A stretch of 24,000 nucleotides of DNA from Tepidiphilus sp. J10 (GCA_945897955.1 CAMDGQ010000001.1:49373-73372), one strand, 5' to 3'; positions 3,091 through 24,000 are shown, counted from the stretch's first letter. Notes: generated by a model not told the origin, from the letters alone. Made by a program: numbers and translations.

Positions 3091-3136
3091 CGCGGTTTCC
3101 AGTTCAGACAGTCAGACATCAATTTCACGATGATTG

Positions 3137-3162
3137 GTCGTTCAGAAACTGGATTCCTGACA
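3137..3162 (-). promoter_or_regulatory. ECF-type promoter copy 2, reads leftward toward the 116aa-thioredoxin-145aa operon
   Basis: Minus strand 3162->3137 = TGTCAGGAAT ccagtttctgaa CGAC (then caat). Confidence 0.65.
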
Positions 3163-6486: not shown

Positions 6487-6644
6487 ACCGGTATTCAACC
6501 CGCAAGGGCGTTGCCCTGGCGAAAACCAACCGGCCAGTAATTGACCATTCCGGTTAGTTTCTGACCGGCGCGGACGGCTATTTCATCGCAACGAAAAACG
6601 CTGTGCCTATTTGAAAACAAGGTGTTGGATCAGTTTTTCTCGAT

Positions 6645-6660
6645 TGGCATGCTTGCTGCT
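6645..6660 (+). promoter_or_regulatory. Candidate sigma-54 (-24/-12) promoter for the multiheme cytochrome gene
   Basis: TGGCATgcttgCTGCT compared with the consensus TGGCAC-N5-TTGCW. GG and GC have the correct 12-nt register, with two mismatches. It lies 39 nt upstream of ATG 6699 and directly downstream of a sigma-54 activator gene. Confidence 0.55.
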
Positions 6661-6698
6661 GTTGTCTCGTTGTTTTTTTACGCAGCGAGGGGAATGCC

Positions 6699-8576
6699 AT
6701 GAAGTTTCGTAGCTGGATGTTCAGGTTGATCGGGCTGATTGGTTTGCCCCTGTTTTGCCTCCCCCTGTCCGCCTCGGCGGCCTGGGACGACGACAAGGGC
6801 TGTCTGGCCTGCCACGAGGGTATCGAACGCATCGCCGATACGCCGACCATGAAGGAGTTGTCCTGCACCTTCTGCCACAAGGGCAATGGCGAGGAAGCCA
6901 AGGATGCCAAGGTGGCGCACAAGGGCATGTTCGCCAATCCGGCCGACTTCCGCGTTGCTGACCAGACCTGCGGCATCTGTCACGCCGAGCACTTGGCCAA
7001 CGGCAAGAAATCGCTGCACGCCACCATGGCTGGCATGATCTCCGGTACCCGCTACGGTTTCGGCGCGCAGGATCGCAAGTCCAAGTACGCCACCTATGCC
7101 GTGGACGGCGGCGTCGCCGACCGGCCCGGCGCGCTGCTGAGCCTACTGCAGGTTCCCAAATATGATCCGAAGAAACCGGATAGCGAGACCAACTCCCCCG
7201 GCGACGATTACCTGCGTAACCAGTGCCTGCGCTGCCACCTGTGGAGCGGCGGCGCGCAACAGACCGGCGACGCCCGCGCCAGCGGCTGCGCGGCCTGCCA
7301 CATGGTGTATTCCGACGCCGGCAAGTACACGGGCGGCGACAAGGCCATCGACAAGACCAAGGTCGGTCGGCCCAAGATGCACAAGATCACCACCAAGGTA
7401 CCCGAATATCAGTGTCTGCACTGCCACAACCGGGGCGGTCGCACCGGCGTCTCCTTCATCGGCACCATGGAGAGCGACAACTACGGTTCGCCCTACAAGG
7501 ACGACGGCAGCAAGCAGGGCAGCCTGCACGGCAAGCAATACAACCACCTGACCAAGGACGTGCACTACGAGAAGGGCATGAGTTGCGTCGATTGCCATAC
7601 TTCCCACGATCTGCACGGCGACGGCCGCATCTACGAGAAGAAGGAAAACGCCGTCGAGATTCGCTGCGAGACCTGTCACGGCGACACCAAGAAAGCGGCC
7701 ACCTTCACCACCCTCTGGGGCAACAAGCTGAACAACATCAGCATGAAGAATGGCAAGCCGGTGCTCACGGCCAAACTCACTGGCAAGGAACATCCGGTAC
7801 CGCAGTTGAAGGGCGCCAAGCTGAGCCAGGAAGGCCACACCGCCATGGTCGCCATCCCGAAGCACATGGAGAAACTGGAGTGCTACAGCTGCCACGCCAA
7901 GTGGGCGCCGCAGTGCTATGGATGCCATACCGACCATGACACCGGCAAACCGTCGCGCGACTGGCTGGCGGACGGCAACAATGAAGACCCGTCGAAGAAC
8001 GGCACCATGGGCGCAGTGGGCAATTCCGCCTTCACCTGGAACGAATCGCGCTCCTACCTGCGTTGGGAAACCCCGGTGCTGGGCATTAACGCCAAGGGCA
8101 AGGTGTCGCCGTTCATCCCCGGTTGCCAGGTGGTCTACACCCAGCATGACAGCAAGGAGAAGACCAAGACGGTGAGCAACAAGGTATTCACCACCGTACA
8201 CGGCACCAGCGGCTGGATGCAGAACCCGATCCAGCCCCACACCATTAGCCGATCCGCCCGCACCTGCGCCGATTGCCACATGAGCCGCAAGGCTATCGGC
8301 CTGGGCACCGGCACCTATGACGTCAAGCGCAACTTCCCGGATGGCGGCGGGCCTGACTTCGAGCCGGAACGCATCGTCGATGAGGAAGGCCGCCAACTAC
8401 AGGGCACTACCCACGAAGGCGCGCGGCCCTTCAACAAGGCCGAGCAGCAGCGCATCAGCCGGGTTGGCGCCTGTATCGCCTGCCATGGTTCCGGCAAGGT
8501 GACGCTGCAGAACAAGGCACCGACGGACGAACTGCATACCAAGGCGATCCGTTCTTACCTGAACAAGAAGAAGTGA
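6699..8576 (+). CDS. Secreted multiheme c-type cytochrome (12 CXXCH motifs)
   Basis: Signal peptide MKFRSWMFRLIGLIGLPLFCLPLSASA/AW. CXXCH sites: CLACH, CTFCH, CGICH, CLRCH, CAACH, CLHCH, CVDCH, CETCH, CYSCH, CYGCH, CADCH, CIACH. RBS GAGGGG lies 6 nt upstream. Confidence 0.9.
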   Translation: MKFRSWMFRLIGLIGLPLFCLPLSASAAWDDDKGCLACHEGIERIADTPTMKELSCTFCHKGNGEEAKDAKVAHKGMFANPADFRVADQTCGICHAEHLANGKKSLHATMAGMISGTRYGFGAQDRKSKYATYAVDGGVADRPGALLSLLQVPKYDPKKPDSETNSPGDDYLRNQCLRCHLWSGGAQQTGDARASGCAACHMVYSDAGKYTGGDKAIDKTKVGRPKMHKITTKVPEYQCLHCHNRGGRTGVSFIGTMESDNYGSPYKDDGSKQGSLHGKQYNHLTKDVHYEKGMSCVDCHTSHDLHGDGRIYEKKENAVEIRCETCHGDTKKAATFTTLWGNKLNNISMKNGKPVLTAKLTGKEHPVPQLKGAKLSQEGHTAMVAIPKHMEKLECYSCHAKWAPQCYGCHTDHDTGKPSRDWLADGNNEDPSKNGTMGAVGNSAFTWNESRSYLRWETPVLGINAKGKVSPFIPGCQVVYTQHDSKEKTKTVSNKVFTTVHGTSGWMQNPIQPHTISRSARTCADCHMSRKAIGLGTGTYDVKRNFPDGGGPDFEPERIVDEEGRQLQGTTHEGARPFNKAEQQRISRVGACIACHGSGKVTLQNKAPTDELHTKAIRSYLNKKK

Positions 8577-11978: not shown

Positions 11979-12027
11979 GATTGATCTCCATCGGTTTCGC
12001 CCAGGAAAAATCAGGCGCTGATGTTGA

Positions 12028-12053
12028 GTCGTCGCTCGCTTGAATTCCTGACA
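12028..12053 (-). promoter_or_regulatory. ECF-type promoter copy 3, reads leftward toward the cytochrome c gene
   Basis: Minus strand 12053->12028 = TGTCAGGAAT tcaagcgagcga CGAC (then tcaa). CGAC ends 50 nt before ATG 11978. Confidence 0.65.
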
Positions 12054-12162
12054 AATCATTTCGGGAACAAAACGCCCTCGTTCAGGACCGATTGGTTCAT
12101 AATCGCAGCGCACCGCGTACCGAATTCACTTGAAGAATCTTCCGCGCGAGAGGAGAAGGCTT

Positions 12163-12759
12163 ATGAGCGACAGCATTCTGGGTTCACCGGAGACCTGGTT
12201 GGATGAGCATGGCGCCGCGCTCTACAAATATGCGCTGGTGCATACCCGCGACCAGCACAAGGCCGAGGAAGCGGTGCAGGAAACCTTGCTCGCCGCTTTG
12301 CAGGCACGCGACCGATTTTCCGGTGGCGCATCCGCACGCACCTGGCTGATCGGCATCCTCAAGCACAAGATCATCGATATGTTCCGGCACGACGCGCGCG
12401 AGGTACAACTGGACGACCCGGACGAACTAGCCGATGCGGATGAAATGCAGGATACCGACAACTTTGCGTCTGACGGACACTGGCAACACAAGTTGTCCGA
12501 TTGGGGCAATCCGCAAGAATTGCTGGAACGCGGCCAATTCATGATCATCCTGCAACGCTGCATGGATGCCTTGCCACCGCGACTGGCGCGACTTTTCCTG
12601 TTGCGCGAGGTGATGGAAGAAAATACTGAAAACATTTGTCAGGAATTGGCGATAACGCCGACCAACCTGTGGACGATGCTGTATCGGGCCCGTTTGGGGC
12701 TCCGGCAGTGTCTCGACAGAAATTGGGTTGGCAACGCAATGCAGGCTGCCCGGAGGTGA
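12163..12759 (+). CDS. ECF (sigma-70 group IV) RNA polymerase sigma factor
   Basis: Region 2 EEAVQETLLAALQARDRF..TWLIGILKHKIIDMFRH. Region 4 LPPRLARLFLLREVMEENTENICQELAITPTNLWTMLYRARLGLRQCL. Start is at ATG 12163 (GAGGAG 7 nt upstream); the track start at 12130 is a TTG. Confidence 0.9.
   Translation: MSDSILGSPETWLDEHGAALYKYALVHTRDQHKAEEAVQETLLAALQARDRFSGGASARTWLIGILKHKIIDMFRHDAREVQLDDPDELADADEMQDTDNFASDGHWQHKLSDWGNPQELLERGQFMIILQRCMDALPPRLARLFLLREVMEENTENICQELAITPTNLWTMLYRARLGLRQCLDRNWVGNAMQAARR
12637..12662 (+). promoter_or_regulatory. ECF-type promoter copy 4, internal to the sigma gene, reads rightward toward the anti-sigma and GGDEF/EAL genes
   Basis: TGTCAGGAAT tggcgataacgc CGAC (then caac), embedded in the codons for ICQELAITPTN. 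CGAC ends 104 nt before ATG 12766. Confidence 0.6.
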
Positions 12760-12765
12760 ATGAAG

Positions 12766-13041
12766 ATGCTGACATGCAAGGATGCAAGCCACTTGATCTC
12801 GGAGAGTCAGGAACGCCGATTGGGTTTCCGGGAACGCTGGGGTTTGCGGATGCATCTCTGGATGTGCGTCAGTTGCAGTCGCTTCGAGCGGCAGATGGCC
12901 TTCATGCGGCAAGCTCTGCGGATGCTGGGCAAGCGTGCCGAGGACGAGACTGACAGCAGCGGATTCCCCCCCGAGTCGCGTGAACGTATCCGCAAGGCGT
13001 TGGCTGAGCGGGACAAGCAAACCCACGATCATCCCCATTGA
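12766..13041 (+). CDS. Soluble zinc-finger (ZAS-type, HxxxCxxC) anti-sigma factor
   Basis: HLWMCVSC is an H-x3-C-x2-C motif, and there is an upstream Cys (MLTCKD). No TM segment is present. The gene directly follows the ECF sigma gene, with GGAGG 9 nt upstream of ATG 12766 (12760 is also possible). Confidence 0.8.
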   Translation: MLTCKDASHLISESQERRLGFRERWGLRMHLWMCVSCSRFERQMAFMRQALRMLGKRAEDETDSSGFPPESRERIRKALAERDKQTHDHPH

Positions 13042-13108: not shown

Positions 13109-15382
13109 ATGCCCAGGCGGAATCGTTATTACATCCTCGGCGTATATGCCTTGTTGCTGGCATTGAGCGCCGGATTCTCGATCAAGATATACCACGACAG
13201 CCGTGCGCTTTACGGCGAAACCGTGGCGTTGATCGAGCAGGATCTACCCATCCTTGGCAGCCTTTCCAACCTGCGTGCCAACGTCGTGGCGCAGGAGCCC
13301 ATTCTTTACGAGTACTACGCCACCACCGACCGCGCGCGTTTTCGCCAGCGCTGGCAAGGCAATCGGCAGCTTGTTGCCGAACTGGGCACCAAGATTCGCC
13401 GGGACTTCCCGGGGCATCCGCGTTTGCTCGTGGTCGATGACCTCAACCGAGAGGTCGATGCCCTTTCTCTGGAGCTGGATCGATTACTCGGCGCCAAGCC
13501 GGTCGATTGGGATGAGGCGCGCGCCCTGCTGGAGGAAATCAGCCTGCACGCGGTGGAGATCAACGCCAACCTGGACAGGCTGGCCGAGGATGTGCACGGT
13601 CGCGTCGACAGCAAGGCTAGCGCCGCACAAATGCGCGTCGACACGATCAACTGGACGGCGCTTTTCTATAGCGGCGCAATGTTTCTGCTGGCCATCGCCG
13701 CCGGCTACTTGATCAATAGTTATCTTGCCGGCGCGCGTGAGCGCCGGCGTCTGGCCATGTTCGCCGAGCGTAACCCGAACCCCGTCATGAATCTCGACGC
13801 CGCAGGTGGCGTGCTGTATGCCAACCCGGCCGCACATTCGACGCTGGCCACCTTGGGATACAACGCTGGCCCGCTTACTCTGTTGTTGCCATCGGACATG
13901 CCTGCGCGGCTGGAGAGCATGCTCACCGAGGGGCTGGCAACCCGCCAATGGAATTACACCGCACTGGGGCGGGAATACGAAACGACGCTCCAATATCTGC
14001 AGGATTTCGAGTACTTCAATGCCTATCTGGTCGATGTCAGCGGACGCAAGGAAGCTGAACGGCGCATGGAATATCTGGCCGAACACGATCCCTTGACCGA
14101 TCTGCCCAACCGCCGCCGTTTTATCGAGGATATCCGCCGGGAAATCGCCAATGGAAGGTTGGGGGCTGTCGTTTTGCTCAGCATCGACCGTCTGCGGGCC
14201 ATTGTCGATGGTGTCGGTCATGGCGTCGCGGATCAACTTTTGCAGGCTGTTGCCCAGCGTTTGCTGCGTTCGCTGGCGGATTGCACCGACCAATGCTCGA
14301 ACGCGCATCTTTACCGATTCGAGGGCGCGGTATTTGGTCTGTTGCTGCCCTGTCTGGAAACGGAACAGACACCGGAACAGATCACGCGAAAGATCGCGCG
14401 TGATTTCGAGTCACCCATCCATGCAGATAACCAGGCTTTCTTTCTCGGGGTGAGCATCGGTGCCAGTTTGTTCCCCACCGATGATGGCGACGCGGTCAAT
14501 CTGATCAGCCATGCCGACCGCGCATTGCAACAGGTCAAACAACGCGGTGGCGGCGGGTATCGTGCCTATGACCGGGACTTGTCGATCCAGGCCGCCGAGC
14601 GGCTTGCGCTGGAAGGCGATCTCCGCCACGCGCTTGAACGTAAGGAACTGTTCATTCAGTACCAACCGCAGGTGGAGGTGGCGAGCATGCGCATCGTCGG
14701 CGTGGAGGCTTTGCTGCGCTGGCGGCATCCAACCCGGGGACTGATCTCGCCGGCCCAATTCATCCCGCTCGCCGAAGCGTCCGGCCTCATCGTGCCGATC
14801 GGTGCCTGGGTGCTGGAAACGGCGTGTGCCCAAGCGCAAGCCTGGCATACGACAGGTCTGCCCCGCATCACCATGGCAATCAATCTTTCCGCCCGCCAGT
14901 TCGCCACCGAAGATTTGGCAAGGGACATTGCGCAAGTCCTGAGCCAAACTGGGCTGCCGCCGCAATTCCTGGAACTTGAAGTCACCGAAAGCATGGCGAT
15001 GGATGATGTGGAACGCTCAATCAGGATATTGCGTGCAATGAAAGACCTCGGCGCTTGTATCTCGATCGACGATTTCGGTACCGGTTATTCCTCACTGGCT
15101 TACCTGCGCCGTCTGCCCATCGACAAGCTCAAGGTGGACCAGTCCTTTGTGAGGAATCTGGAAAACGATCCCGGTGATGCGGCCCTGGTTCTCAGCGTGG
15201 TGCAACTGGGGCATAGCCTGAACCTGAGCGTCATCGCCGAAGGCGTCGAGACGCTGGGGCAACTGGAATTCCTGCGCGGTACGGGGTGCGAAGAAATCCA
15301 GGGCTATTACTTCAGCCGCCCACTCGACAGTGCTGCACTGGAAACCCTGCTTGGCAGCGGCATCGCGGCATTTCAAGCGTGA
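13109..15382 (+). CDS. Membrane sensor protein: periplasmic helical domain - PAS - degenerate GGDEF - EAL (probable c-di-GMP phosphodiesterase)
   Basis: TM helices YYILGVYALLLALSAGFSI and LFYSGAMFLLAIAAGYLI. In the GGDEF domain the signature reads RFEGAVFGLLL (GGDEF replaced by EGAVF). The EAL domain appears intact (VEALLRW, DDFGTGYSSL, KVDQSF, AEGVET, QGYYFSRP). Start is ATG 13109 or GTG 13106, after AAGGAG. The track extension to 12935 overlaps the anti-sigma gene. Confidence 0.9.
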   Translation: MPRRNRYYILGVYALLLALSAGFSIKIYHDSRALYGETVALIEQDLPILGSLSNLRANVVAQEPILYEYYATTDRARFRQRWQGNRQLVAELGTKIRRDFPGHPRLLVVDDLNREVDALSLELDRLLGAKPVDWDEARALLEEISLHAVEINANLDRLAEDVHGRVDSKASAAQMRVDTINWTALFYSGAMFLLAIAAGYLINSYLAGARERRRLAMFAERNPNPVMNLDAAGGVLYANPAAHSTLATLGYNAGPLTLLLPSDMPARLESMLTEGLATRQWNYTALGREYETTLQYLQDFEYFNAYLVDVSGRKEAERRMEYLAEHDPLTDLPNRRRFIEDIRREIANGRLGAVVLLSIDRLRAIVDGVGHGVADQLLQAVAQRLLRSLADCTDQCSNAHLYRFEGAVFGLLLPCLETEQTPEQITRKIARDFESPIHADNQAFFLGVSIGASLFPTDDGDAVNLISHADRALQQVKQRGGGGYRAYDRDLSIQAAERLALEGDLRHALERKELFIQYQPQVEVASMRIVGVEALLRWRHPTRGLISPAQFIPLAEASGLIVPIGAWVLETACAQAQAWHTTGLPRITMAINLSARQFATEDLARDIAQVLSQTGLPPQFLELEVTESMAMDDVERSIRILRAMKDLGACISIDDFGTGYSSLAYLRRLPIDKLKVDQSFVRNLENDPGDAALVLSVVQLGHSLNLSVIAEGVETLGQLEFLRGTGCEEIQGYYFSRPLDSAALETLLGSGIAAFQA

Positions 15383-15393
15383 ATTGGGCTCGA

Positions 15394-16131
15394 TTACGTT
15401 GGCCGTGAAACCAGGTGCAGGTGCTGGGTCGTAGATTGCATCGCAGGCGAAATCTCTGTTTGTGGCTGATAGCTGAAGCGAACGCTCTGCCGTTCGCGCG
15501 ACATCTCGATGCGGGCAATGCTGTGGGTGCAGGCGTCCGGACGTGACATGCGGATGCCGGCGGCGGCATTGTCGCCACGGTGTTCATGGAAGGTAGCCAG
15601 TTGTTCGACGCTGGCCGACGCCATGTCGCCCACATCCCGGGCAAATGTGGCCAAACGCTGGCTGGCGATGACCTCGGGTTGATATGACGAGGTGGTCAGC
15701 AGGCAGCCCTCGGCGGCCAATTGTGTCGAAGTGGCATCGATGCCGTCCCAGGTCAGCAGGCTGGCCTGCGACGCATCGGCGGCAATCAGATGAAACGGCG
15801 GCACATCGTCCAGCCGTCGCGTTGCAATACGCTTGATCGCCGTCTCTACATCCAGGCAGTCGGCAGCGTGATGCGGCAACCAGCCGCGTGAGGCGGGATG
15901 AGTTGGGGCCAGACGCATTGCCGTTGCATGGTTGAGCAGAGCCAGGCTGAGCCCGTGTTCATTGACCAGCAGCCAGGTGCCGCCGCGCGCAGTATCGGTC
16001 GGTGCCAGATAGCGCACGCCGTTCGCTTCGAACGCGCGCGGTGGTAGCGCGACGGGCCGGCTGCGCTGTTCGTCGCGATTGAAGAACAGCACATAGCCGG
16101 TATCCAGGGGCTTCCAGGTCAGCGTACACAT
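15394..16131 (-). CDS. NRDE family (TANGO2-like) protein
   Basis: N-terminal MCT..FFNRDE signature. The start overlaps the end of the upstream DinB-like gene by 13 nt. Confidence 0.75.
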   Translation of the reverse strand: MCTLTWKPLDTGYVLFFNRDEQRSRPVALPPRAFEANGVRYLAPTDTARGGTWLLVNEHGLSLALLNHATAMRLAPTHPASRGWLPHHAADCLDVETAIKRIATRRLDDVPPFHLIAADASQASLLTWDGIDATSTQLAAEGCLLTTSSYQPEVIASQRLATFARDVGDMASASVEQLATFHEHRGDNAAAGIRMSRPDACTHSIARIEMSRERQSVRFSYQPQTEISPAMQSTTQHLHLVSRPT

Positions 16132-16649
16132 GTTGACGCTTTCACGGCAGTGTCGATTTCCTTGCGGAAAACCAGCGTGGAAGGCGCGACACCAAACGTC
16201 GCATCGACGTCAATGCCCTGTATGCGACAGAGAATCGCGATGATGGCGTAGTGATGGACGCTATGGCTGCAGAGAAAGCCCAGCTCGCGTTCCGGCGAGG
16301 TGGCGGTTTCGATTGCATCGCTCGAATCATCGATACGCGTGCGCAACGGACCGATGTCGCCGGGTGTAATGGCAGTCAGTTCCTGCCGCAGTCGCTTGAA
16401 CAAATCGAGCGCCGCGTCACGCTGCTGCTCGATGCGCGGATCGCGTAGCCGCGCGGCGTAATCGATGCAACCGCTTTGCAGTCCATCGAGAAAACTGGCG
16501 TAGTGATCGAGATTGTGTCGGATATGGGCGCCGATGCTGCCGCCGAATACAAGCGCTACGTTGCGTGTGTAATCGGCATCGCTGATGCGCTGTAGTAGTG
16601 CTTCGCCCTGTTGCAGGGTAACGATGTTGCGCTGGATCAAATCGAACAT
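16119..16649 (-). CDS. DinB-like (four-helix-bundle metal-binding) superfamily protein
   Basis: His-rich motifs IRHNLDHY and HSVHHYA. Start is at ATG 16649 (MFDLIQ..), which overlaps the stop of the acyltransferase gene by 13 nt. The track extension to 16937 is a shadow frame inside the upstream gene. Confidence 0.65.
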   Translation of the reverse strand: MFDLIQRNIVTLQQGEALLQRISDADYTRNVALVFGGSIGAHIRHNLDHYASFLDGLQSGCIDYAARLRDPRIEQQRDAALDLFKRLRQELTAITPGDIGPLRTRIDDSSDAIETATSPERELGFLCSHSVHHYAIIAILCRIQGIDVDATFGVAPSTLVFRKEIDTAVKASTCVR

Positions 16650-18433
16650 GACTGCGCCGCCGTCCTGGAAGTATTGAAGGCAGCGTAGGCTGCAGCGCCT
16701 TCGCCGAGAAAGGTGGCCAACTGCTTTTCCGGCAGCGCATCCATGTCCACCGAAAGCAGCAGGCCGGGCGTGGCGTTGAAGTTGGGGTCGACGCCGACGC
16801 AATGAAAGCGGGCGCCGAGCTTGTGATAGTGCTTCAGCAACACTGGCGTATCTTTGCCTTCGGCATCCAGTCCACGCACACAGGCGGACAGCGTCTGCAA
16901 ATCGAAACGCCCTTTTCCGGCGCGATAGTCGAGCCATTCCGGATGCGGCACATGCTGCAGCGGATGCCGTGGGCGCACATGCGGCGAAGGTTCGATCAGC
17001 GCATCGCAGATCAGCGCGATCACTGCTTCGTCATATTGCCGCGACAACGATACCGTGCCGTACAGACGGCGATATTGCGGATGCGCTACCAGATAGCGGC
17101 CGATGCCCTGCCACAGCAGGTAAAGCGCATGAAAACTCTTCTGGTGCTCCGGCACGACGAAAGAACGTCCGAGTTCCAGGGCGGGCGGCATTTCATCGTA
17201 GAAGGCGGCATCGAATTCGAACATCTGGGCGAGATACATACCGCGCGGACCATTTTCCTGGCGCAAGCGGTCGGACTGGCCCAAACGATAAGCGCCGACC
17301 AGTGACTGCGCCACGTTGTCCCAGACGAAAAGCTGGACGTAGCTGTGGTCGTAAGCGTCGCCGTCGCGCGGCTGGCCGCTGCCTTCGTCATAGAGCCGGA
17401 AGACCCGCTCGCGTTCGCGGGCGATATCGTCCTGCAGCAGCGGGATCTGCGCAGCGCGGGCGTGGAAAACGGAGAAATGCTTGAAGTCGAGCAGCCGCTG
17501 TGCGGCGGGCAACGTGGCGATCTCGCCGACGATGCGCTCGCGCTGGCCAAGCGTCGCCAGCGGTAGCAGATTGCCGGCCAGCGTGGGCGGTGCCATGTGC
17601 GGTTCTGCGTGGTGTGCAGCAAGCGAAGGTTCCAGCAGGTAAGTCATCAGGCGCGCATAACGTGTTAGCGCCGCCGCATCCATGCCGCGCCAGACCTCCG
17701 GCGCAATTGCATGGCCGACATGGAATTCGATTCGTCGACCGCGCATGCGCAGGAACTCGCGCGGCAACATCAGCAGCTTGGAGCGATCCCAGATTTTGCC
17801 CAGCGTCTGGAACAGGCGGCTGTTCGCGCCTTCAAAGAACACCGGCAAAATCGCCGCCTCATGCCGCAGCGCAAGGTGTCCGACCAGCCGATTCCAGGCC
17901 GCGTCGCGAATGCGATCTTCGCCACGCGGGCTGAACGACACCTTGCCGGCCGGGAAGATCACCAGCACGCCTCCGCTGCCGAGATGGGCTGAGCAGGCCC
18001 GAATCGAAACGAGATTTTTCTGGCTGGTCTTGAGCGGATTGGTGGCGATGAACAGTGGCGCCAATTCAGCAAATACGTTCAATCCTGCATTGGCGAGAAT
18101 TTTGATGTCAGTGCGGATGCCTCGCAGACTTTGCGCCAGCGCCAGCGCCTCGACGCCGCCGAGCGGGTGATTGCAGACCACGATCAGCGGCCCCCGCACC
18201 GGGATTTGCTTGGCAAGATCACCCGGTTCATGCGCGATGGTCAAAGCCAGCGCCGAAAGCGTGCGTTCGACGAAGTCGAACGGCGGCAACGCGCGCAATC
18301 GATTCTGCCGGTAAAGCCGGTTCAAGCGATGGATGCCGAGCAAGCGGTCGAATAGTGGCGCGACAAACCCAAACCAGGCTGGGGCGTGTTTGGGAACAGC
18401 TGCGCGCAGGCTGATGCTGGATTCATTCAACAT
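16637..18433 (-). CDS. Bifunctional acyltransferase: N-terminal PlsC/OlsA-like O-acyltransferase + C-terminal OlsB/hemolysin-like N-acyltransferase (OlsF-like aminolipid synthase)
   Basis: The N-terminal half has the lysophospholipid-acyltransferase block VVCNHPLGGVEAL (HX4-acidic) and VIFPAGKVS. The C-terminal half (YDHSYVQLFVWDN..LVGAYRLGQ..LELGRSFV..YLLWQGI) resembles OlsB-type GNAT-like N-acyltransferases. Start is ATG 18433 or GTG 18448. Confidence 0.75.
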   Translation of the reverse strand: MLNESSISLRAAVPKHAPAWFGFVAPLFDRLLGIHRLNRLYRQNRLRALPPFDFVERTLSALALTIAHEPGDLAKQIPVRGPLIVVCNHPLGGVEALALAQSLRGIRTDIKILANAGLNVFAELAPLFIATNPLKTSQKNLVSIRACSAHLGSGGVLVIFPAGKVSFSPRGEDRIRDAAWNRLVGHLALRHEAAILPVFFEGANSRLFQTLGKIWDRSKLLMLPREFLRMRGRRIEFHVGHAIAPEVWRGMDAAALTRYARLMTYLLEPSLAAHHAEPHMAPPTLAGNLLPLATLGQRERIVGEIATLPAAQRLLDFKHFSVFHARAAQIPLLQDDIARERERVFRLYDEGSGQPRDGDAYDHSYVQLFVWDNVAQSLVGAYRLGQSDRLRQENGPRGMYLAQMFEFDAAFYDEMPPALELGRSFVVPEHQKSFHALYLLWQGIGRYLVAHPQYRRLYGTVSLSRQYDEAVIALICDALIEPSPHVRPRHPLQHVPHPEWLDYRAGKGRFDLQTLSACVRGLDAEGKDTPVLLKHYHKLGARFHCVGVDPNFNATPGLLLSVDMDALPEKQLATFLGEGAAAYAAFNTSRTAAQSCSI

Positions 18434-18563
18434 GTTGCACAACACCAAGCCGGCGGCATCGGTACTTCACCATCGTATCCGCATTTTTTTGCTTGTTTGG
18501 CGATTTCATCGCTATCTCCAGGGACGTTGATTGCACAGACCGAGTTTTCGTCAGTGCAAATTA

Positions 18564-18589
18564 GTCGCTGCACACGCGGATTCCTGACA
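18564..18589 (-). promoter_or_regulatory. ECF-type promoter copy 5, reads leftward toward the acyltransferase operon
   Basis: Minus strand 18589->18564 = TGTCAGGAAT ccgcgtgtgcag CGAC (then taat). Confidence 0.65.
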
Positions 18590-18683
18590 CCTATTTATTC
18601 CTTGAACTGCAAGGACTCGCACAAGACGCCATCGAGTTGAAGAGAGGCCTTCAAACAGGGATGAAAAATTTCTTGAAAATTAT

Positions 18684-18709
18684 TGTCAGGAATTGACGTG
18701 TGCGCCGAC
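18684..18709 (+). promoter_or_regulatory. ECF-type promoter copy 6, reads rightward toward the RiPP precursor operon
   Basis: TGTCAGGAAT tgacgtgtgcgc CGAC (then caaa). CGAC ends 100 nt before ATG 18809. Confidence 0.65.
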
Positions 18710-18808
18710 CAAATGCTGAGCGATGCTGAATCAGGCCATTTTCGGACATGGGCAGCATCGACATGAACCGCCCATCCGGGCTTATGAAATGACTTTTGGA
18801 GACATACC

Positions 18809-19225
18809 ATGAACGCACGTAAAACCCACCTGACCATCGCCCTTGCCGCAACCATTGGCGCCGCTGCCGGCCTCGCCGGCTATGCCCAGGCTGCGAGCAG
18901 CAACCCCTTCGCCATGCAAAGCCTGAACAGCGGCTACATGGTCGCCGCCGCCGAAGCCAAGGCCAAAGAGGGAAAATGCGGTGAAGGTAAATGTGGCGGC
19001 AGCAAGGCCAAGGCCAAGGAAGGCAAGTGTGGCGAAGGCAAATGCGGCGGCGATAAGGCCAAAGCCAAGGAAGGCAAGTGTGGCGAGGGCAAATGCGGTG
19101 GCGATAAGGCCAAATCCGATGCCAAGGCCAAGGAAGGCAAGTGTGGTGAAGGAAAATGTGGTGGCAGCAAGGCCAAAGCCAAGGAAGGCAAATGTGGCGA
19201 GGGCAAGTGCGGCGGCAAGAAGTAA
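18809..19225 (+). CDS. hvfA: RiPP precursor, HvfA-like: Sec signal peptide + five KEGKCGEGKCGG repeats (10 EGKCG motifs)
   Basis: MNARKTHLTIALAATIGAAAGLAGYAQA/ASS is a signal peptide. It is followed by 5 x AKAKEGKCGEGKCGG(S/D/K)K. RBS GGAG lies 7 nt upstream. The gene directly precedes a DUF692 gene. Confidence 0.85.
   Translation: MNARKTHLTIALAATIGAAAGLAGYAQAASSNPFAMQSLNSGYMVAAAEAKAKEGKCGEGKCGGSKAKAKEGKCGEGKCGGDKAKAKEGKCGEGKCGGDKAKSDAKAKEGKCGEGKCGGSKAKAKEGKCGEGKCGGKK
18956..19222 (+). repeat. Five in-frame tandem repeats (51, 51, 51, 63, 51 nt) encoding the EGKCG-EGKCG units
   Basis: Units start at 18956, 19007, 19058, 19109 and 19172. The 36-nt cores differ only at synonymous third positions. 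Confidence 0.9.
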
Positions 19226-19243
19226 GCCTGCGGCAGACCGACC

Positions 19244-20086
19244 ATGCGTACATCCACACTGCATGGCGCGGGTCTCGGCCTGAGGCGGGAACTCATCCCC
19301 GACCTTAGGACCGACCTCCCGAGCGCCATAGACTTCTTCGAACTCGCCCCGGAAAACTGGCTGGAAATGGGCGGCTCGCGACGCCGCGATCTGCGCCACT
19401 TCGCCGAGCGCCGGTCCATCGTTGCGCACGGCCTGTCGCTCAACCTGGGCGGCCCGACGCCGCTGGACGAACTGTTTTTGCAACGCGTGAAGCGTTTTCT
19501 GGACGAATACCGTATCGATCTGTTTACCGAACACCTGTCCTGGTGCGGCGACGACGGCCACCTCTACGACCTGCTGCCGATTCCGTTTACCGGCGATGCG
19601 GTGCGTCATGTCGCGGCGCGCATCCGGCGCACGCAGGACATTCTCGAACGCCGCATCGCCATTGAAAACGCCTCCTACTATGTCTCGCCGGCGATTGCCG
19701 AGATGAGCGAGATCGACTTCATCCGCGCCGTGCTGAGCGAGGCCGATTGCGATCTGCACCTCGACGTCAACAACGTCTATGTCAACAGCGTCAACCACCG
19801 CTTCGACCCGCGCGCCTTCATCGACGCGATGCCGGCCGAGCGCATCGTTTATCTGCATATGGCCGGGCATTACCAGGAAGCCGAAGATCTGATTATCGAC
19901 ACCCACGGTGCGCCGGTGATCGATCCGGTGTGGCAACTGCTCGACCACACCTACGCCCGCATCGGCACACGGCCGACGCTGTTGGAACGTGATTTCAATA
20001 TTCCGCCGTTGGTGGAATTGCTGCCGGAAGTGACGCGCATCCGTGAACTTCAACAACAATACCCCGGATTGCGCCATGCCGCCTGA
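19244..20086 (+). CDS. hvfB: DUF692 / MNIO (multinuclear non-heme iron oxidase) RiPP-modifying enzyme, MbnB/HvfB-like
   Basis: GAGLGLRRELIPDL..IDFFELAPENW..VAHGLSLNLGG..FTEHLSW..IAIENASYY..LHLDVNNVYVNSVNHRFDP..VYLHMAGH..IIDTHGAPV..PTLLERDFNIPP is the full DUF692/UPF0276 signature. Confidence 0.9.
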   Translation: MRTSTLHGAGLGLRRELIPDLRTDLPSAIDFFELAPENWLEMGGSRRRDLRHFAERRSIVAHGLSLNLGGPTPLDELFLQRVKRFLDEYRIDLFTEHLSWCGDDGHLYDLLPIPFTGDAVRHVAARIRRTQDILERRIAIENASYYVSPAIAEMSEIDFIRAVLSEADCDLHLDVNNVYVNSVNHRFDPRAFIDAMPAERIVYLHMAGHYQEAEDLIIDTHGAPVIDPVWQLLDHTYARIGTRPTLLERDFNIPPLVELLPEVTRIRELQQQYPGLRHAA

Positions 20087-20870
20087 AGCCCTGCATTTCA
20101 CCGCGATGCTTTTCACAGACTATCAGGCTGCTTTCGGTGCCCGCATCCGCGACCCGAAACAGGCTGCGCGGCCGCCTGGCGTGCCGGCCAAACGTATGCG
20201 GGTGTATGAAGAACTGCTGTTCAACAATCTGGAAGGCTTTCTGCTGAGCTGCTATCCGGTCACCCGCAAACTGCTCGGCAAGCGTCTGTGGCGGCAGACC
20301 GTGCGGCGTTTCTTCGTCGAGCACCGTAGCCACTCGCCGCTGTTTCGAGATATCCCGAAAGCCTTTCTCGACTGGATGGCCAGCGGTGCGGCGCAATTCG
20401 CAACCCTGCCATTTCTGCCCGAATTCATGCATTACGAATGGCTGGAGCTGAGTGTCTCGATCACGCCGGAAGAAGTCGATCCGGCTGCCATCGATGCTCA
20501 CGGCGATCTGCTGCGTGGCCGTCCTGCGCTGCACCCGACCGCCCGCCTGGCCTGTTACGCCTATCCGGTGCATCAAATCAGCCCACGTTTCAAGCCAACA
20601 GCGGCGGATGGCCAAACCTGGTGTTATCTGTTGTTCCGCGATGAAGATGAAGCCGGACAGGATGATGTGCGCTTCATTTTGCTGAACCCGCTCTCCGCCC
20701 AATTGATTGCCCTGATGTGCGATCACCAACCGAGCGGACAAGAAGCGCTGGCGCATCTGGCAGGACAGAACAATCCAACTCAATACGAAGCTTTCCTTCA
20801 ACTCGGTGGCGAACTGCTGCGCGACCTGCGCAAACAAGGCGCCCTTCTTGGAACCTGGAGAAATCAATGA
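20076..20870 (+). CDS. hvfC: DUF2063-family partner protein (HvfC/BufC/MbnC-like)
   Basis: The N-terminal region (FTDYQAAFGARIRDP..RMRVYEELLFNNLEGFLLSCYPVTRKLLG..W..FFVEHRSHSPLFRDIP..F) is typical of DUF2063. ATG 20076 overlaps the end of hvfB by 11 nt; the track start at 20043 is a GTG. Confidence 0.8.
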   Translation: MPPEALHFTAMLFTDYQAAFGARIRDPKQAARPPGVPAKRMRVYEELLFNNLEGFLLSCYPVTRKLLGKRLWRQTVRRFFVEHRSHSPLFRDIPKAFLDWMASGAAQFATLPFLPEFMHYEWLELSVSITPEEVDPAAIDAHGDLLRGRPALHPTARLACYAYPVHQISPRFKPTAADGQTWCYLLFRDEDEAGQDDVRFILLNPLSAQLIALMCDHQPSGQEALAHLAGQNNPTQYEAFLQLGGELLRDLRKQGALLGTWRNQ

Positions 20871-21340
20871 ACCTGATCGCAAATCTCACCGGTCTGACCC
20901 AAACCACCTTCGGCGGCCTGAGCAAAATCGGCGAATGGATCGCACCACTAGGCCTGCGGCTGCTGCTGGCTTATGAATTCTGGCAAGCCGGGGTGGAGAA
21001 ATTCAACGGCGAGAACTGGTTCGCCGACATTCAGGAGCAATTCCCCTTTCCGTTCAATGTCGTACCTGTGGAAATCAGCTGGCAAATATCGACCTGGACC
21101 GAATTGATCGGACCAGTCATGCTGGTGCTCGGCCTCGGCACCCGTTTCGCCAGCGTGTCGCTAATCATCCTGACCATCGTCGCTTGGGTCAGCGTACATG
21201 CCGGCAACGGCTACAACGTGTCTGACAACGGCTTCAAGTTGCCGTTGATCTACTTGGTTATGTTTGTGCCACTTCTGCTCTCAGGCCCAGGCAAGTTGAG
21301 TCTGGATCACTGGATAGCCAATAGGCTGTCGCATAGATAA
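20867..21340 (+). CDS. DoxX-family integral membrane protein
   Basis: LGLRLLLAYEFWQAGVEKF.., followed by several hydrophobic helices. ATG 20867 is ATGA-coupled to the hvfC stop, with GGAGAA upstream. The track extension to 20717 is a shadow frame inside hvfC. Confidence 0.85.
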   Translation: MNLIANLTGLTQTTFGGLSKIGEWIAPLGLRLLLAYEFWQAGVEKFNGENWFADIQEQFPFPFNVVPVEISWQISTWTELIGPVMLVLGLGTRFASVSLIILTIVAWVSVHAGNGYNVSDNGFKLPLIYLVMFVPLLLSGPGKLSLDHWIANRLSHR

Positions 21341-21765
21341 CAGACCTGGATTGCTCAGTACGCCCGCCATCGGCAGCTCCGGTCGAGTTGTGTGAGTTGG
21401 CATTCCGGCTGGTTTCGAAGCGCTGCAGTCGTTCGATTGGCTGCTTTCCGGGGTCATCGAACGGCAAATCCAGGCTGAAAGAGTGAATTCAACCGATTCC
21501 CACTATGCGGACATTCAACGGGAATTCCTCTGCGGCACTGAATGGCAGTTCTGGCCGAAGGGGGGCCAGTTAGTTGCTGCTCTGTACGACCGCTCTAATC
21601 GGTTACCTGCCTGAGAACCGCCAAAGCGGCGAATGACTGCAAGGGTTCGAATATCCTCCCGCTAGCCTCCACGTAAGCAGCCCTCCAAGACCACAAAGTC
21701 TGTTCACGATGCCAGCAGTGTCGATGAGATCGAGCGTGTCTCGCCGCCATTCAGGCACCGGCATG

Positions 21766-21797
21766 AGAAAACCCCCGGCATCAGCGATGCGCGGGGG
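21766..21797 (-). terminator. Rho-independent terminator of the leftward phage-like genes
   Basis: Minus strand reads CCCCCGcgcatcgctgatgcCGGGGG followed by TTTTCTC. Confidence 0.6.
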
Positions 21798-21805
21798 TGG
21801 GTTCG

Positions 21806-22009
21806 TTACCTGGGTGCGTTGTAGAGCCTGCTGGCCATCCGGTTGTTGATCTGGGCAAGCCGATGGAACTGGCTTGAATCGTTGCAGTGTCTATTCCTGC
21901 GTGGGATGTGTTCAAAGCGCTTCGGGTCAGAAAGGTGTTTCGGCCTGATTCGCCAGCTCATCTCATACTCGGCATAGCCATAGGGTGCCCAATGGATGGT
22001 TTTTGACAT
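21806..22009 (-). CDS. Hypothetical small phage-like protein (67 aa)
   Basis: Track ORF 21806..22060 trimmed to ATG 22009 (MSKTIHW..), which lies 11 nt after the stop of the upstream small ORF and is preceded by GGGGA. Confidence 0.4.
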   Translation of the reverse strand: MSKTIHWAPYGYAEYEMSWRIRPKHLSDPKRFEHIPRRNRHCNDSSQFHRLAQINNRMASRLYNAPR

Positions 22010-22020
22010 CGTTGTCCCCA

Positions 22021-22182
22021 TCAAGCTGGCGTCCATGTGCCCAGAAACATGGCCTGGCACGCATCGTCGAACTTCCAGTAGTACTCCTCCGATACTCGGT
22101 GGAATGCCCGCAGCGCTTCGTCGAACTGCGCGATGTAATAACCCTGTGGTGCTGGCAGTACTTCATATTGCATGACTTCCAT
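22021..22182 (-). CDS. Hypothetical small protein (53 aa), below the ORF-track length cutoff
   Basis: My translation is MEVMQYEVLPAPQGYYIAQFDEALRAFHRVSEEYYWKFDDACQAMFLGTWTPA*. GAGGAG lies 7 nt upstream of ATG 22182. The track ORF 21963..22166 is another frame. Confidence 0.35.
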   Translation of the reverse strand: MEVMQYEVLPAPQGYYIAQFDEALRAFHRVSEEYYWKFDDACQAMFLGTWTPA

Positions 22183-22254
22183 GATTGCTCTCCTCAAAAA
22201 TGCGTCCTCACGGGCGCGGTTGAATTCATGAGGAGTAGGAAGAACAGCAGACGA

Positions 22255-22286
22255 TAAAAACCCCGCTGACCAGAGGCCGAGCGGGG
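22255..22286 (-). terminator. Rho-independent terminator after the 82-aa gene
   Basis: Minus strand reads CCCCGCT cggcctctggtc AGCGGGG followed by TTTTTAT. Confidence 0.6.
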
Positions 22287-22293
22287 TGGGGTA

Positions 22294-22542
22294 CTACATC
22301 GCGAATTTGCCTTTGCCGTACTGGACCCGAGCCTGGATCCAGTTGGCAAGTTCGGATGGGTCGGAGAAACTGACCACCGATTTTGCGCCATCCGGGAAGT
22401 GCGCGTTGAGCAGGATGCCTTTCTGGACCAGCCTGGTCGGCCCGAGAGAAGCGAGACCCTTGGCATGTTCCTGAATCACGTGCAGGCCTTTTCCTTCCCT
22501 GACGGTGATGCCGCGCAGGGTGACTCGGACGCGATTCATCAC
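22294..22542 (-). CDS. Hypothetical phage-like protein (82 aa)
   Basis: Complete ORF. The start is ATGA-coupled to the stop of the upstream annealing-protein gene. Confidence 0.5.
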   Translation of the reverse strand: MMNRVRVTLRGITVREGKGLHVIQEHAKGLASLGPTRLVQKGILLNAHFPDGAKSVVSFSDPSELANWIQARVQYGKGKFAM

Positions 22543-23258
22543 GCGGCCTCCCGTTGTTTGAGTACGCTGATTGCGCGCTCGTACTCGGGCAGGGTCAGTT
22601 CCTCGACCGTCCTGGCCTTGGACTTGAGCCAGGCAATAAGGCTTTCGGACGTGCGCTTGGAGGCCGCGAGCAGGTCACTCACTTCCTTGGCCTGGCTGGG
22701 CGAGAGGGTGTTGCCACCCGTCTTGCCAGCCTCCTCGCGTTTGCCTTCCGGTTTGCTCCCCGACTTGACGTTCTTGTCCGTGCCGAATTCCTTTCGAAGA
22801 TCGGCGACGTACTTGTTGTCGTCATACAACCCCAGATGGACATCGGCGCTGAAACCAATGAGCGACAGGCATTTGCTCATGGCATCCGTCATGGACTTCT
22901 TGGGTGCTTCTTCATCGGTGAAGAAGCCGTTCTTGTTGCGGCCGACAAAGATTGTCTGGCCGAAGTGGATCACCTCGCCACGCTTGCCCTGGTAGACATA
23001 CCAGAGATTGACGCGCAGGACGTGGATCACTTCCTTGCCAACCACTGCGCCATCCAGGATCAAGGGTGCGCCATCCTGATATCGCTCTTCCAGGATATCG
23101 ATGCCCCAGCCGATGCCGCAGGGTCCGAAGGTTTCAGTGGCTTTCTGCGCCTGGTAGGTCGCATTGATGGCCGTGCCCGAGAAACCACCACTACGAGTAA
23201 AGCCCTTGACGAAGTTGGGGTTGGTTACAGCGACTGCATTCCACAGTTCCATGCTCAT
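22539..23258 (-). CDS. Putative phage single-strand annealing protein (Rad52/Sak-like)
   Basis: The central block FFTDEEAPKKSMTDAMSKCLSLIGFSADVHLGLYDD resembles the conserved Rad52/Sak motif (K..TDA..K.L...G....LY), with a basic/acidic low-complexity tail. Start is at ATG 23258 (AAGGAG 7 nt upstream). Confidence 0.55.
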   Translation of the reverse strand: MSMELWNAVAVTNPNFVKGFTRSGGFSGTAINATYQAQKATETFGPCGIGWGIDILEERYQDGAPLILDGAVVGKEVIHVLRVNLWYVYQGKRGEVIHFGQTIFVGRNKNGFFTDEEAPKKSMTDAMSKCLSLIGFSADVHLGLYDDNKYVADLRKEFGTDKNVKSGSKPEGKREEAGKTGGNTLSPSQAKEVSDLLAASKRTSESLIAWLKSKARTVEELTLPEYERAISVLKQREAA

Positions 23259-23363
23259 GGTGCTTCTCCTTGATGTGCGCCCCACGGCGCGTTGATGAAG
23301 GCCCGACGGATGCCGGGCACAGGTTTCAAGGAGGAGTAGTGAATTCGTGGTGTGATAAATGAA

Positions 23364-23390
23364 TTGTCAAGACGTGCAACGGTATATAAT
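23364..23390 (+). promoter_or_regulatory. Sigma-70-like promoter with a perfect -10
   Basis: TATAAT at 23385-23390. The upstream -35-like TTGTCA at 23364-23369 gives a short 15-nt spacer; shifting the hexamer (ATTGTC or AATTGT) gives 16-17 nt. The promoter faces the DsbC-like gene. Confidence 0.4.
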
Positions 23391-23506
23391 ATGCTTGTAA
23401 TGATTTAACTATGAAGGCGTTGCATGAATTCATACCAACAGCTCATGGCCGTCGGCTATGCCGGCGCAGATGTGGATTGCTCCTCGTTTTCAGGCGACAT
23501 CTCGCT

Positions 23507-24000
23507 ATGAGGATTGCCACACGCGGATCGTCATTTCTCCTGGCTGCCCTGTTGGCGGTCTCCAGTCATGCGGGCGATGCACCAGCCGATCCCGCCAAAA
23601 CCATCGCGGAACGACTCAAGCAGCGTTATCCGGCCACGCGTATCGACCAGGTACTGCCGTCTCCCCTGCCAGGCCTCTACGAGGTGGTCATGGGGCGCAA
23701 TGTGGCATTCAGCGATGCCGAGGGGCGCTACTTCATCTTCGGCCACCTCTACGACATGCTTAGCCAGCGTGACATCACCGCCGAGCGCAAGGAAGCGCTG
23801 GCCAAAATCGATTGGTCGGTCCTGCCCCTGGAAAACAGCATCAAGTTCGTGAGCGGCAAGGGTGAGCGCGTTCTGGCGGTGTTCTCCGACCCGGATTGCC
23901 CCTATTGCAAAAAGGTCGAATCGGAACTGGCCAAGCTGGATAACGCGACCCTCTATCTCTTCCCGTTCCCGATCCAGTCACTGCATCCGAATGCGGTGGC
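23507..24000 (+). CDS. DsbC/DsbG-family periplasmic thiol:disulfide interchange protein (5' part; continues beyond the window)
   Basis: Absent from the ORF track because it runs off the right edge. My translation is MRIATRGSSFLLAALLAVSSHA/GDAP..LPGLYEVVMGRNVAFSDAEGRYFIFGHLYD..ERVLAVFSDPDCPYCKKVESEL: a signal peptide, a DsbC N-terminal dimerisation motif and a CPYC active site. An in-frame ATG at 23411 is an alternative start. Confidence 0.8.
   Translation, partial: MRIATRGSSFLLAALLAVSSHAGDAPADPAKTIAERLKQRYPATRIDQVLPSPLPGLYEVVMGRNVAFSDAEGRYFIFGHLYDMLSQRDITAERKEALAKIDWSVLPLENSIKFVSGKGERVLAVFSDPDCPYCKKVESELAKLDNATLYLFPFPIQSLHPNAV

Follow-up and report, generated by a model that had tools for sequence, protein, structure and literature searches.

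Among the closest described systems is HvfABCX of nontypeable Haemophilus influenzae (NTHi). HvfA of NTHi, a protein of 95 amino acids (aa), carries three AEGKCGEGKCG motifs after its signal peptide and an N-terminal region. Through the joint action of HvfB and HvfC it acquires six -4 Da modifications, and in this form it binds Cu(I) (Manley et al. 2024, PMC11252979). HvfB is active with a mixed-valent di-iron cofactor, which assembles only together with HvfC. Approximately 2,000 precursors of this Buf_EGKCG/oxazolin family, ranging from 31 to 506 residues, have been reported. They are built of 17-residue double-EGKCG repeats in variable copy number, and their clusters hold genes for the ribosomally synthesised and post-translationally modified peptide (RiPP), a multinuclear non-haem iron oxidase (MNIO), a DUF2063 protein and a DoxX protein (Leprevost et al. 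2025, PMC12452194). The class is called captophorins, and over 20,000 of its clusters have been reported in RefSeq. Here we describe a locus of this kind at positions 18809-21340 of a 24,000-nucleotide (nt) stretch of DNA from Tepidiphilus sp. J10 (GCA_945897955.1 CAMDGQ010000001.1:49373-73372), referred to as the window. All four proteins encoded by the locus are HvfABCX members by curated equivalog cut-offs. It is highly probable that an uncultured Hydrogenophilales-like betaproteobacterium carries here an hvfABCX operon belonging to the Buf_EGKCG/oxazolin (captophorin) class, with the mechanism and regulation proposed below. The locus is a further example of an already described and very common class.

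Regulation of a related cluster has been studied in Neisseria. The Neisseria sigma-E factor transcribes NMB2140-2145, coding for a DoxX protein, three proteins of then-unknown function, rpoE and mseR (PMC2893595, PMC3240639). NMB2140-2143 are orthologous to the hvf genes, and the cluster was later identified as the gonophorin cluster. The consensus promoter of Neisseria sigma-E, GTMAGBWTT-N12-13-CGTCTAAH, was derived experimentally, and the cysteines of the anti-sigma factor MseR are required for its activity.

The precursor gene hvfA (18809-19225, plus strand) was identified from the open reading frame (ORF) map and by the NCBIfam HvfA model. It encodes 138 aa with the primary structure MNARKTHLTIALAATIGAAAGLAGYAQA, followed by ASSNPFAMQSLNSGYMVAAAE and by five copies of AKAKEGKCGEGKCGG(S/D/K)K. 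Residues 1-28 (18809-18892) form a predicted signal peptide, read from the sequence, with a K/R-containing n-region, a hydrophobic core of 17 aa (mean Kyte-Doolittle value 1.79) and a putative cleavage site AQA|AS. A conserved linker of 21 aa follows (residues 29-49, 18893-18955), and residues 50-138 (18956-19222) consist of five double-EGKCG units. This layout agrees with a preliminary description of the DNA, in which a signal peptide, a linker of about 20 aa and five paired units had been proposed. The EGKCG motifs start at residues 54, 59, 71, 76, 88, 93, 109, 114, 126 and 131, so that the periods of the units are 17, 17, 21 and 17 aa, with a 4-aa insert in one unit. All 10 cysteines of HvfA are within KCG and none is found outside the repeats. 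The protein scored 120 bits with the NCBIfam model NF050188 HvfA (cut-off 95) and 120 bits, in 5 stretches, with NF050137 KCGExKCG_twice (cut-off 19.5). A GGAG ribosome-binding site (RBS) is located 8 nt 5' of the ATG, and no other ORF of the window is rich in KCG. An identical 138-aa gene was predicted by a separate gene caller in a metagenome contig (L081) that differs from the window by 1 mismatch in 12,757 bases.

When the five DNA units of hvfA were compared with each other, 71 of the 83 pairwise differences were found at codon position 3, while the remaining 12 are all in a single variable codon. Because of this third-codon-position bias the repeat is not a chance product of composition, and the HvfA precursor is under purifying selection at the protein level.

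The three genes that follow are tightly coupled to hvfA, with the spacing given in the preliminary description. The ATG of hvfB (19244-20086, plus strand) is 18 nt downstream of the hvfA stop codon. This gene encodes an MNIO (DUF692) of 280 aa, which matches Pfam PF05114 (MbnB_TglH_ChrH; E 3.7e-104) and scores 421 with NCBIfam NF003818 HvfB (cut-off 360). The protein also aligns to PDB entry 3BWW (E 3.9e-83), and the motifs HGLSL, (D/E)HLS, ENxSYY, HLDVNN, H(I/M)AGH, DTHG and LERD are kept between the two. Residues N175, D242 and H244, shown by mutation to be essential in HvfB of H. influenzae, are located in the LDVNN and DTH motifs. The hvfC gene (20076-20870, plus strand) overlaps hvfB by 11 nt and encodes the DUF2063 partner protein of 264 aa with a RiPP recognition element (RRE). 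It was recognized by PF09836 and PF22106, the N- and C-terminal HvfC domains, and by NCBIfam NF050145 HvfC (253, cut-off 142), and the protein matches a Neisseria protein of known structure (PDB 3DEE, E 1.6e-9). The stop codon of hvfC and the ATG of hvfX (20867-21340, plus strand) are joined as ATGA. HvfX is a DoxX-family membrane protein of 157 aa (PF07681), scoring 155 with NCBIfam NF050144 HvfX (cut-off 80). A scan for a plus-strand terminator 3' of hvfX revealed none. The profile searches thus bear out the family assignments that had been suggested for the DUF692, DUF2063 and DoxX proteins, by Pfam matches and by all four NCBIfam Hvf models above cut-off.

The locus shares with HvfABCX of NTHi the four protein families, a precursor with a Sec signal, the AEGKCGEGKCG pair and an MNIO with an RRE partner. 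The paired EGKCG arrangement is the canonical unit, since HvfA of NTHi is itself built of AEGKCGEGKCG pairs. The earlier statement that the paired and amplified arrangement could not be mapped onto a characterised member therefore does not hold, given the NTHi pairs, the KCGExKCG_twice model and the variable repeat number of the family. Differences are nevertheless found: five pairs and 10 cysteines here against three pairs and 6 cysteines in NTHi, hvfX as the last gene here against another position depicted for NTHI1440, and an associated sigma/anti-sigma pair of the extracytoplasmic function (ECF) type with a promoter here, against no regulator described for NTHi. With type 1 of the Buf_EGKCG/oxazolin clusters there is no essential difference, apart from sigma factors, which are not given there as typical (PMC12452194). 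The fontiphorin (FonABC) and gonophorin (NgoABC) systems likewise combine an EGKCG-repeat precursor with an MNIO and a PME1/DUF2063 partner (PMC12668002). Their products carry multiple copper-binding 5-thiooxazoles (PMC12668002), as is predicted for the locus described here. Repeat numbers and spacers differ from those of fontiphorin, in which FonA has 7 sites (PMC12668002).

The bufferin systems BufABC(D) of Caulobacter and Bordetella also have MNIO, DUF2063 and DoxX genes and a Sec-exported precursor, and their thiooxazoles and copper binding are likewise proposed here. However, bufferin precursors are DUF2282 or Buf2 proteins, and no DUF2282 is present here. Buf1 clusters are under ECF control, as is proposed here, but with NrsF as the anti-sigma factor, while a zinc-binding anti-sigma (ZAS) protein is found here. 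The BufB model scored 274.5 bits on HvfB, under its cut-off of 310, and because of this score the locus is HvfB-type, not BufB-type. A bufferin Buf1 system was ruled out on this score and on the missing DUF2282, and of the suggested "oxazolin/bufferin-type" assignment only the first half stands. In methanobactin biosynthesis by MbnABC, cysteines of a ribosomally made peptide are likewise oxidised by an MNIO, yielding a copper ligand. That system, however, has a leader peptide, oxazolone/thioamide groups, MbnC as the partner and transport genes of its own, against the Sec signal seen here. Methanobactin was ruled out as well, on the Sec signal in place of a leader peptide and on the MbnB model, which scored only 29 bits on HvfB against a cut-off of 325.

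Relatives of the locus were collected as 80 loci from an HvfB scan of representative genomes. The best HvfB relatives are from Hydrogenophilales-like betaproteobacterial metagenome-assembled genomes (MAGs), among which a Tepidiphilus sp. MAG with 93% identity. KCG motifs, counted in 71 loci, number 0-12 per locus with a mode of 6, in 0-6 paired units. Five pairs are also present in L001 and six in L026 and L039, and five pairs are for this reason at the high end of the range without being exceptional. In the 16 closest loci, for which the upstream ORFs were inspected, the linker is conserved as NPFAMQSL..GY.VA; it may serve as the HvfC recognition segment.

By analogy with the characterised homologues, HvfA would be synthesised in the cytoplasm, where a complex of HvfB, as a mixed-valent di-iron MNIO, and HvfC would carry out the four-electron oxidation of all 10 KCG cysteines to 5-thiooxazole. 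The predicted mass change is -4 Da per cysteine and -40 Da in total. Processed HvfA has a computed mass of 10,744 Da, and of approximately 10,704 Da with the predicted modifications. Sec would export HvfA and signal peptidase would cleave it after AQA28, leaving a Lys-rich product of 110 aa that may bind periplasmic Cu(I) via thiooxazole N/S donors. At about 1 Cu per heterocycle pair, this peptide would carry about 5 Cu.

A candidate regulator is encoded upstream. The ECF sigma factor gene (12163-12759, plus strand; Pfam Sigma70_r2/r4_2) encodes 198 aa of the TIGR02943 family (201.7, cut-off 162.2). It is followed by the gene for an MseR-like ZAS anti-sigma factor of 91 aa (12766-13041, plus strand), found by gene call and by NCBIfam NF052368 antisigmaE (75.5, cut-off 50). 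Cys4, His30, Cys34 and Cys37 of this protein (H30xxxC34xxC37; from MLTCKD...HLWMCVSC) are at the same positions as in MseR (NMB2145) of N. meningitidis. The pair thus resembles the Neisseria sigma-E/MseR regulon in the ECF sigma factor and in the small cytoplasmic ZAS protein with these four residues, and also in the predicted targets, which include DoxX, precursor, MNIO and DUF2063 genes. The gonophorin cluster of Neisseria is likewise tied to a sigma-E/MseR pair (PMC12668002). The sigma and anti-sigma genes of Neisseria are, however, at the 3' end of the same operon, while here they are upstream with 5.8 kb of inserted genes between. The order sigma, anti-sigma, hvfA, hvfB, hvfC, hvfX is uninterrupted in L001, L006, L007 and L044. 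In L002 a GGDEF/EAL gene is located between the anti-sigma gene and hvfA, and, a 3.2-kb segment at 15419-18611 aside, the window aligns collinearly with L002 (blastn). Since the window corresponds to the L002 arrangement plus this 3.2-kb insertion, the 6-kb separation of sigma and hvf genes is secondary.

The window was scanned with the Neisseria sigma-E consensus, and an exact pattern was derived from the copies at 12638 and 18685, which have GTCAGGAAT-N12-CGACCAA in common. Six exact copies of GTCAGGAAT-N12-CGAC are present in the 24-kb window, against 0.00 expected; all are correctly oriented and each faces a start codon 43-127 nt away. The predicted sigma-E-type promoter of hvfA, GTCAGGAAT-N12-CGACCAAA, is at 18685-18713 on the plus strand and ends 96 nt 5' of the ATG. 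A second plus-strand copy (12638-12666) is inside the 3' end of the sigma gene and faces the anti-sigma gene and the GGDEF/EAL gene. The other four are predicted promoters on the minus strand. The one at 18560-18588, GTCAGGAAT-N12-CGACTAAT, is divergent from that of hvfA and faces OlsF-like, DinB-like and TANGO2-like genes (18433 down to 15394). The site at 12024-12052 faces a SoxA-like cytochrome c gene (11978-11367), that at 3133-3161 a 116-aa ORF (3090-2740) and a thioredoxin-like gene (2870-2292), and that at 1780-1808 a DUF2934 small protein (1771-1514). The ECF sigma factor would drive hvfA from this motif, restrained by the neighbouring MseR-like zinc/thiol anti-sigma factor, and the same promoter type would drive at least five further units in the window. 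Compared with Neisseria, the promoter has the form GTCAGGAAT-N12-CGAC(C/T)AA, lies in the 3' end of the sigma gene and is duplicated before hvfA; the predicted local regulon is larger, with six promoters in 24 kb, and the sigma gene apparently has a sigma-70-like promoter. A scan for sigma-70-type promoters upstream of hvfA revealed none. A candidate ECF promoter TGAACC-N16-GAC in the hvfA-proximal block was dropped once the GTCAGGAAT motif was found upstream.

The nature of this regulator bears on the role of the operon. Instead of copper buffering, the role may be copper acquisition, with the peptide as a chalkophore, or protection against oxidants or hypochlorite, with the peptide serving in the periplasm as a thiol pool that is sacrificial or redox-active. 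A thiol-based anti-sigma factor of the MseR type fits the oxidant role, as do the thioredoxin-like protein and cytochrome c among the predicted co-regulated genes, the msrPQ genes that occupy the same slot in L004, and the control of msrAB by Neisseria sigma-E. Furthermore, the function of oxazolin is stated as unknown in the literature. However, every characterised member is a copper binder, excess metal induces several of them, and no methanobactin-type TonB receptor or exporter was found in the window. A role other than copper buffering is therefore considered unlikely, while it deserves to be kept in mind.

It could also be argued that the sigma/anti-sigma pair is not the regulator of hvfA and that the motif is a repeat without promoter function. 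The copies at 12638 and 18685 share ancestry and therefore are not independent. The four other copies, however, have flanks and spacers that are unrelated and still face start codons, and all six sites fit the consensus of the orthologous Neisseria sigma factor, agreeing at 8/9 positions in the -35 element and at 5-7/8 in the -10 element across a spacer of 12 nt. Within 750 nt 5' of hvfA, a match to at least 14/17 consensus positions was found in 45% of the related loci against 3% of control segments, and a match to at least 15/17 in 21% against 0.4%. These matches include non-coding sites directly 5' of hvfA in loci of another gene order, in which the sigma gene is situated 3' of hvfX. Where the sigma, anti-sigma and hvfA genes are contiguous, the motif falls within the 3' end of the sigma gene, a position occupied in approximately 19 related loci. 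Finally, homologues of the pair directly adjoin hvfABCX in approximately 35 of the 80 loci. This alternative is hence improbable. The synteny and the six-copy motif support, at the level of sequence, a cognate sigma/anti-sigma pair within a wider regulon, as the preliminary description had proposed for the pair 6 kb away.

The chemistry of the product has a history of its own. The modification of HvfA was originally assigned in NTHi as oxazolone/thioamide pairs, which the names of the NCBIfam models still carry, and HvfBC might install such pairs here as in methanobactin. Two independent groups have, however, reassigned oxazolin to 5-thiooxazole (2025-2026 papers) by alkylation-assisted heteronuclear multiple bond correlation (HMBC) and by comparison with methanobactin. 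HvfB-type enzymes moreover group with BufB and not with MbnB, the model of which, as noted above, scores far under its cut-off here. Oxazolone/thioamide pairs are thus very improbable. Of the copper-binding RiPP foreseen for this locus, the EGKCG precursor, predicted to be exported, with MNIO, DUF2063 and DoxX proteins is upheld by the equivalog models, while the oxazolone/thioamide part gives way to 5-thiooxazole.

It is hardly credible that the repeat ORF is an artefact of low complexity, or that it encodes a metallothionein-like, Cys-rich protein without modification: the Pfam search of the precursor gave no match, including DUF2282, and a cluster look-up was without the exact HvfA sequence (taken as a quirk of the look-up, as the same gene is in L081), but the differences between units concentrate at third codon positions, the signal peptide, NPFAMQSL linker and KCG units are conserved in at least 70 loci, HvfA scores above the HvfA cut-off, and the genes for the maturases follow hvfA in tight coupling.

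Upstream of the sigma gene itself, by about 60 nt, a block GGTTCATAATCGC at 12094-12106 is conserved in at least 8 relatives and is probably a sigma-70 -10 element. In the window it gave 7 matches at no more than 3 mismatches against 5.9 expected and is thus not repeated. A promoter common to the upstream region of the sigma gene and hvfA was rejected for this reason, and a GGAAC-type -35 element 5' of the sigma gene was rejected on its inconsistent spacing among relatives.

Some points count against the proposed mechanism and regulation of the hvfABCX operon. Recognition of NTHi HvfA is helped by two N-terminal cysteines in a disulfide, and HvfA described here is without them. EGKCG peptides have been reported to bind copper with heterogeneous stoichiometry, and their role in copper sequestration, acquisition or oxidative stress is unsettled even in characterised homologues. 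As to regulation, the motif in the sigma gene may partly be kept by the coding constraint of region 4.2. Autoregulation of the sigma gene in the style of Neisseria is not evident, since the block upstream of it differs from the motif and is sigma-70-like.

The region between the anti-sigma gene and hvfA holds the predicted hvfA promoter. Positions 18674-18768 (plus strand) are a degenerate copy, with approximately 72% identity, of the 3' end of the ECF sigma gene (12616-12706), as found by blastn and alignment, and the promoter is inside this copy. A sigma-gene fragment 5' of hvfA is also present in L002 (9471-9561) and L004 (3448-3498). The genes in the gap differ between the three loci: msrPQ in L004, GGDEF/EAL in L002, and GGDEF/EAL with three further genes here. 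It is tentatively proposed, at somewhat less than even confidence, that the promoter embedded in the coding 3' end of the sigma gene is functional, that the duplicated fragment of about 95 nt is a portable promoter cassette, and that the gap is an insertion hotspot recruiting cargo to the stress regulon. At 18756-18790 (plus strand), a conserved block of the 5' untranslated region (5'-UTR), CATCGACATGAACCGCCCATCCGGGC, contains a small GCCC/GGGC hairpin. This block, CATCGnCATGAACCGCCCA(n3-4)GGGC, which can also be written as CATCGnCATGAACCGCCCAnnnnGGGC, is located between the promoter and the hvfA RBS and its short hairpin is invariant. It is present in 11 loci (including L001-L009 and L044), twice in L004 and once in the window; the hairpin showed no covariation and the block no Rfam match.

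The GGDEF-EAL protein gene (13109-15382, plus strand) is located 3' of the anti-sigma gene, and its product has a membrane-anchored N-terminal sensor region. GGDEF-EAL genes recur beside hvf operons of the clade, either before hvfA or after hvfX/hvfC (L004 6121-8460, L014 1987-4260, L016 11635-13908). This hints at a connection of the stress regulon with cyclic di-GMP (c-di-GMP) signalling. The 3.2-kb segment at 15419-18611 that is absent from L002 carries the three minus-strand genes for OlsF-like, DinB-like and TANGO2-like proteins. The OlsF-like protein is a bifunctional ornithine/aminolipid synthase by resemblance, with a score under the equivalog cut-off.

Synteny with relatives stops right after hvfX, where a region resembling a mobile element begins (21320-24000; L081 10100-16843), with small ORFs and a phage-type exonuclease (phrog_7838, E 8e-64, 22539-23285, minus strand). 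Past the end of the window DsbC, TraW, TraU, TrbC and TraN are encoded in L081, which suggests an F-type conjugative element, possibly integrative and conjugative (ICE). No tRNA was found at the junction of hvfX and this region, and in the window as a whole Rfam at gathering thresholds gave nothing and ARAGORN no tRNA or tmRNA. At the other side of the window, 3263-8576 holds a Cache-domain sensor histidine kinase and a sigma-54-dependent response regulator, followed by a multihaem cytochrome of 625 aa. At 278 bits, under the cut-off of 800, the cytochrome is similar to ExtM from selenite/tellurite-reduction operons, and an FKBP-type isomerase is encoded downstream of it.

With curated models at the equivalog level, biochemical work on three members and the RefSeq examples mentioned above already available for the class, the contribution of this locus is a betaproteobacterial example with 10 cysteines. 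It offers a natural case for studying the processing of ten sites by HvfBC and the Cu(I) load of a five-pair peptide. The putative promoter cassette that arose by duplication and the predicted local regulon of six promoters are the sole new element, and a modest one; the six-promoter motif provides a testable MseR-type sigma regulon outside Neisseria. If the cassette and the recruitment of cargo hold true, copper/thiol stress would be linked in this organism to c-di-GMP signalling and to the remodelling of membrane lipids.

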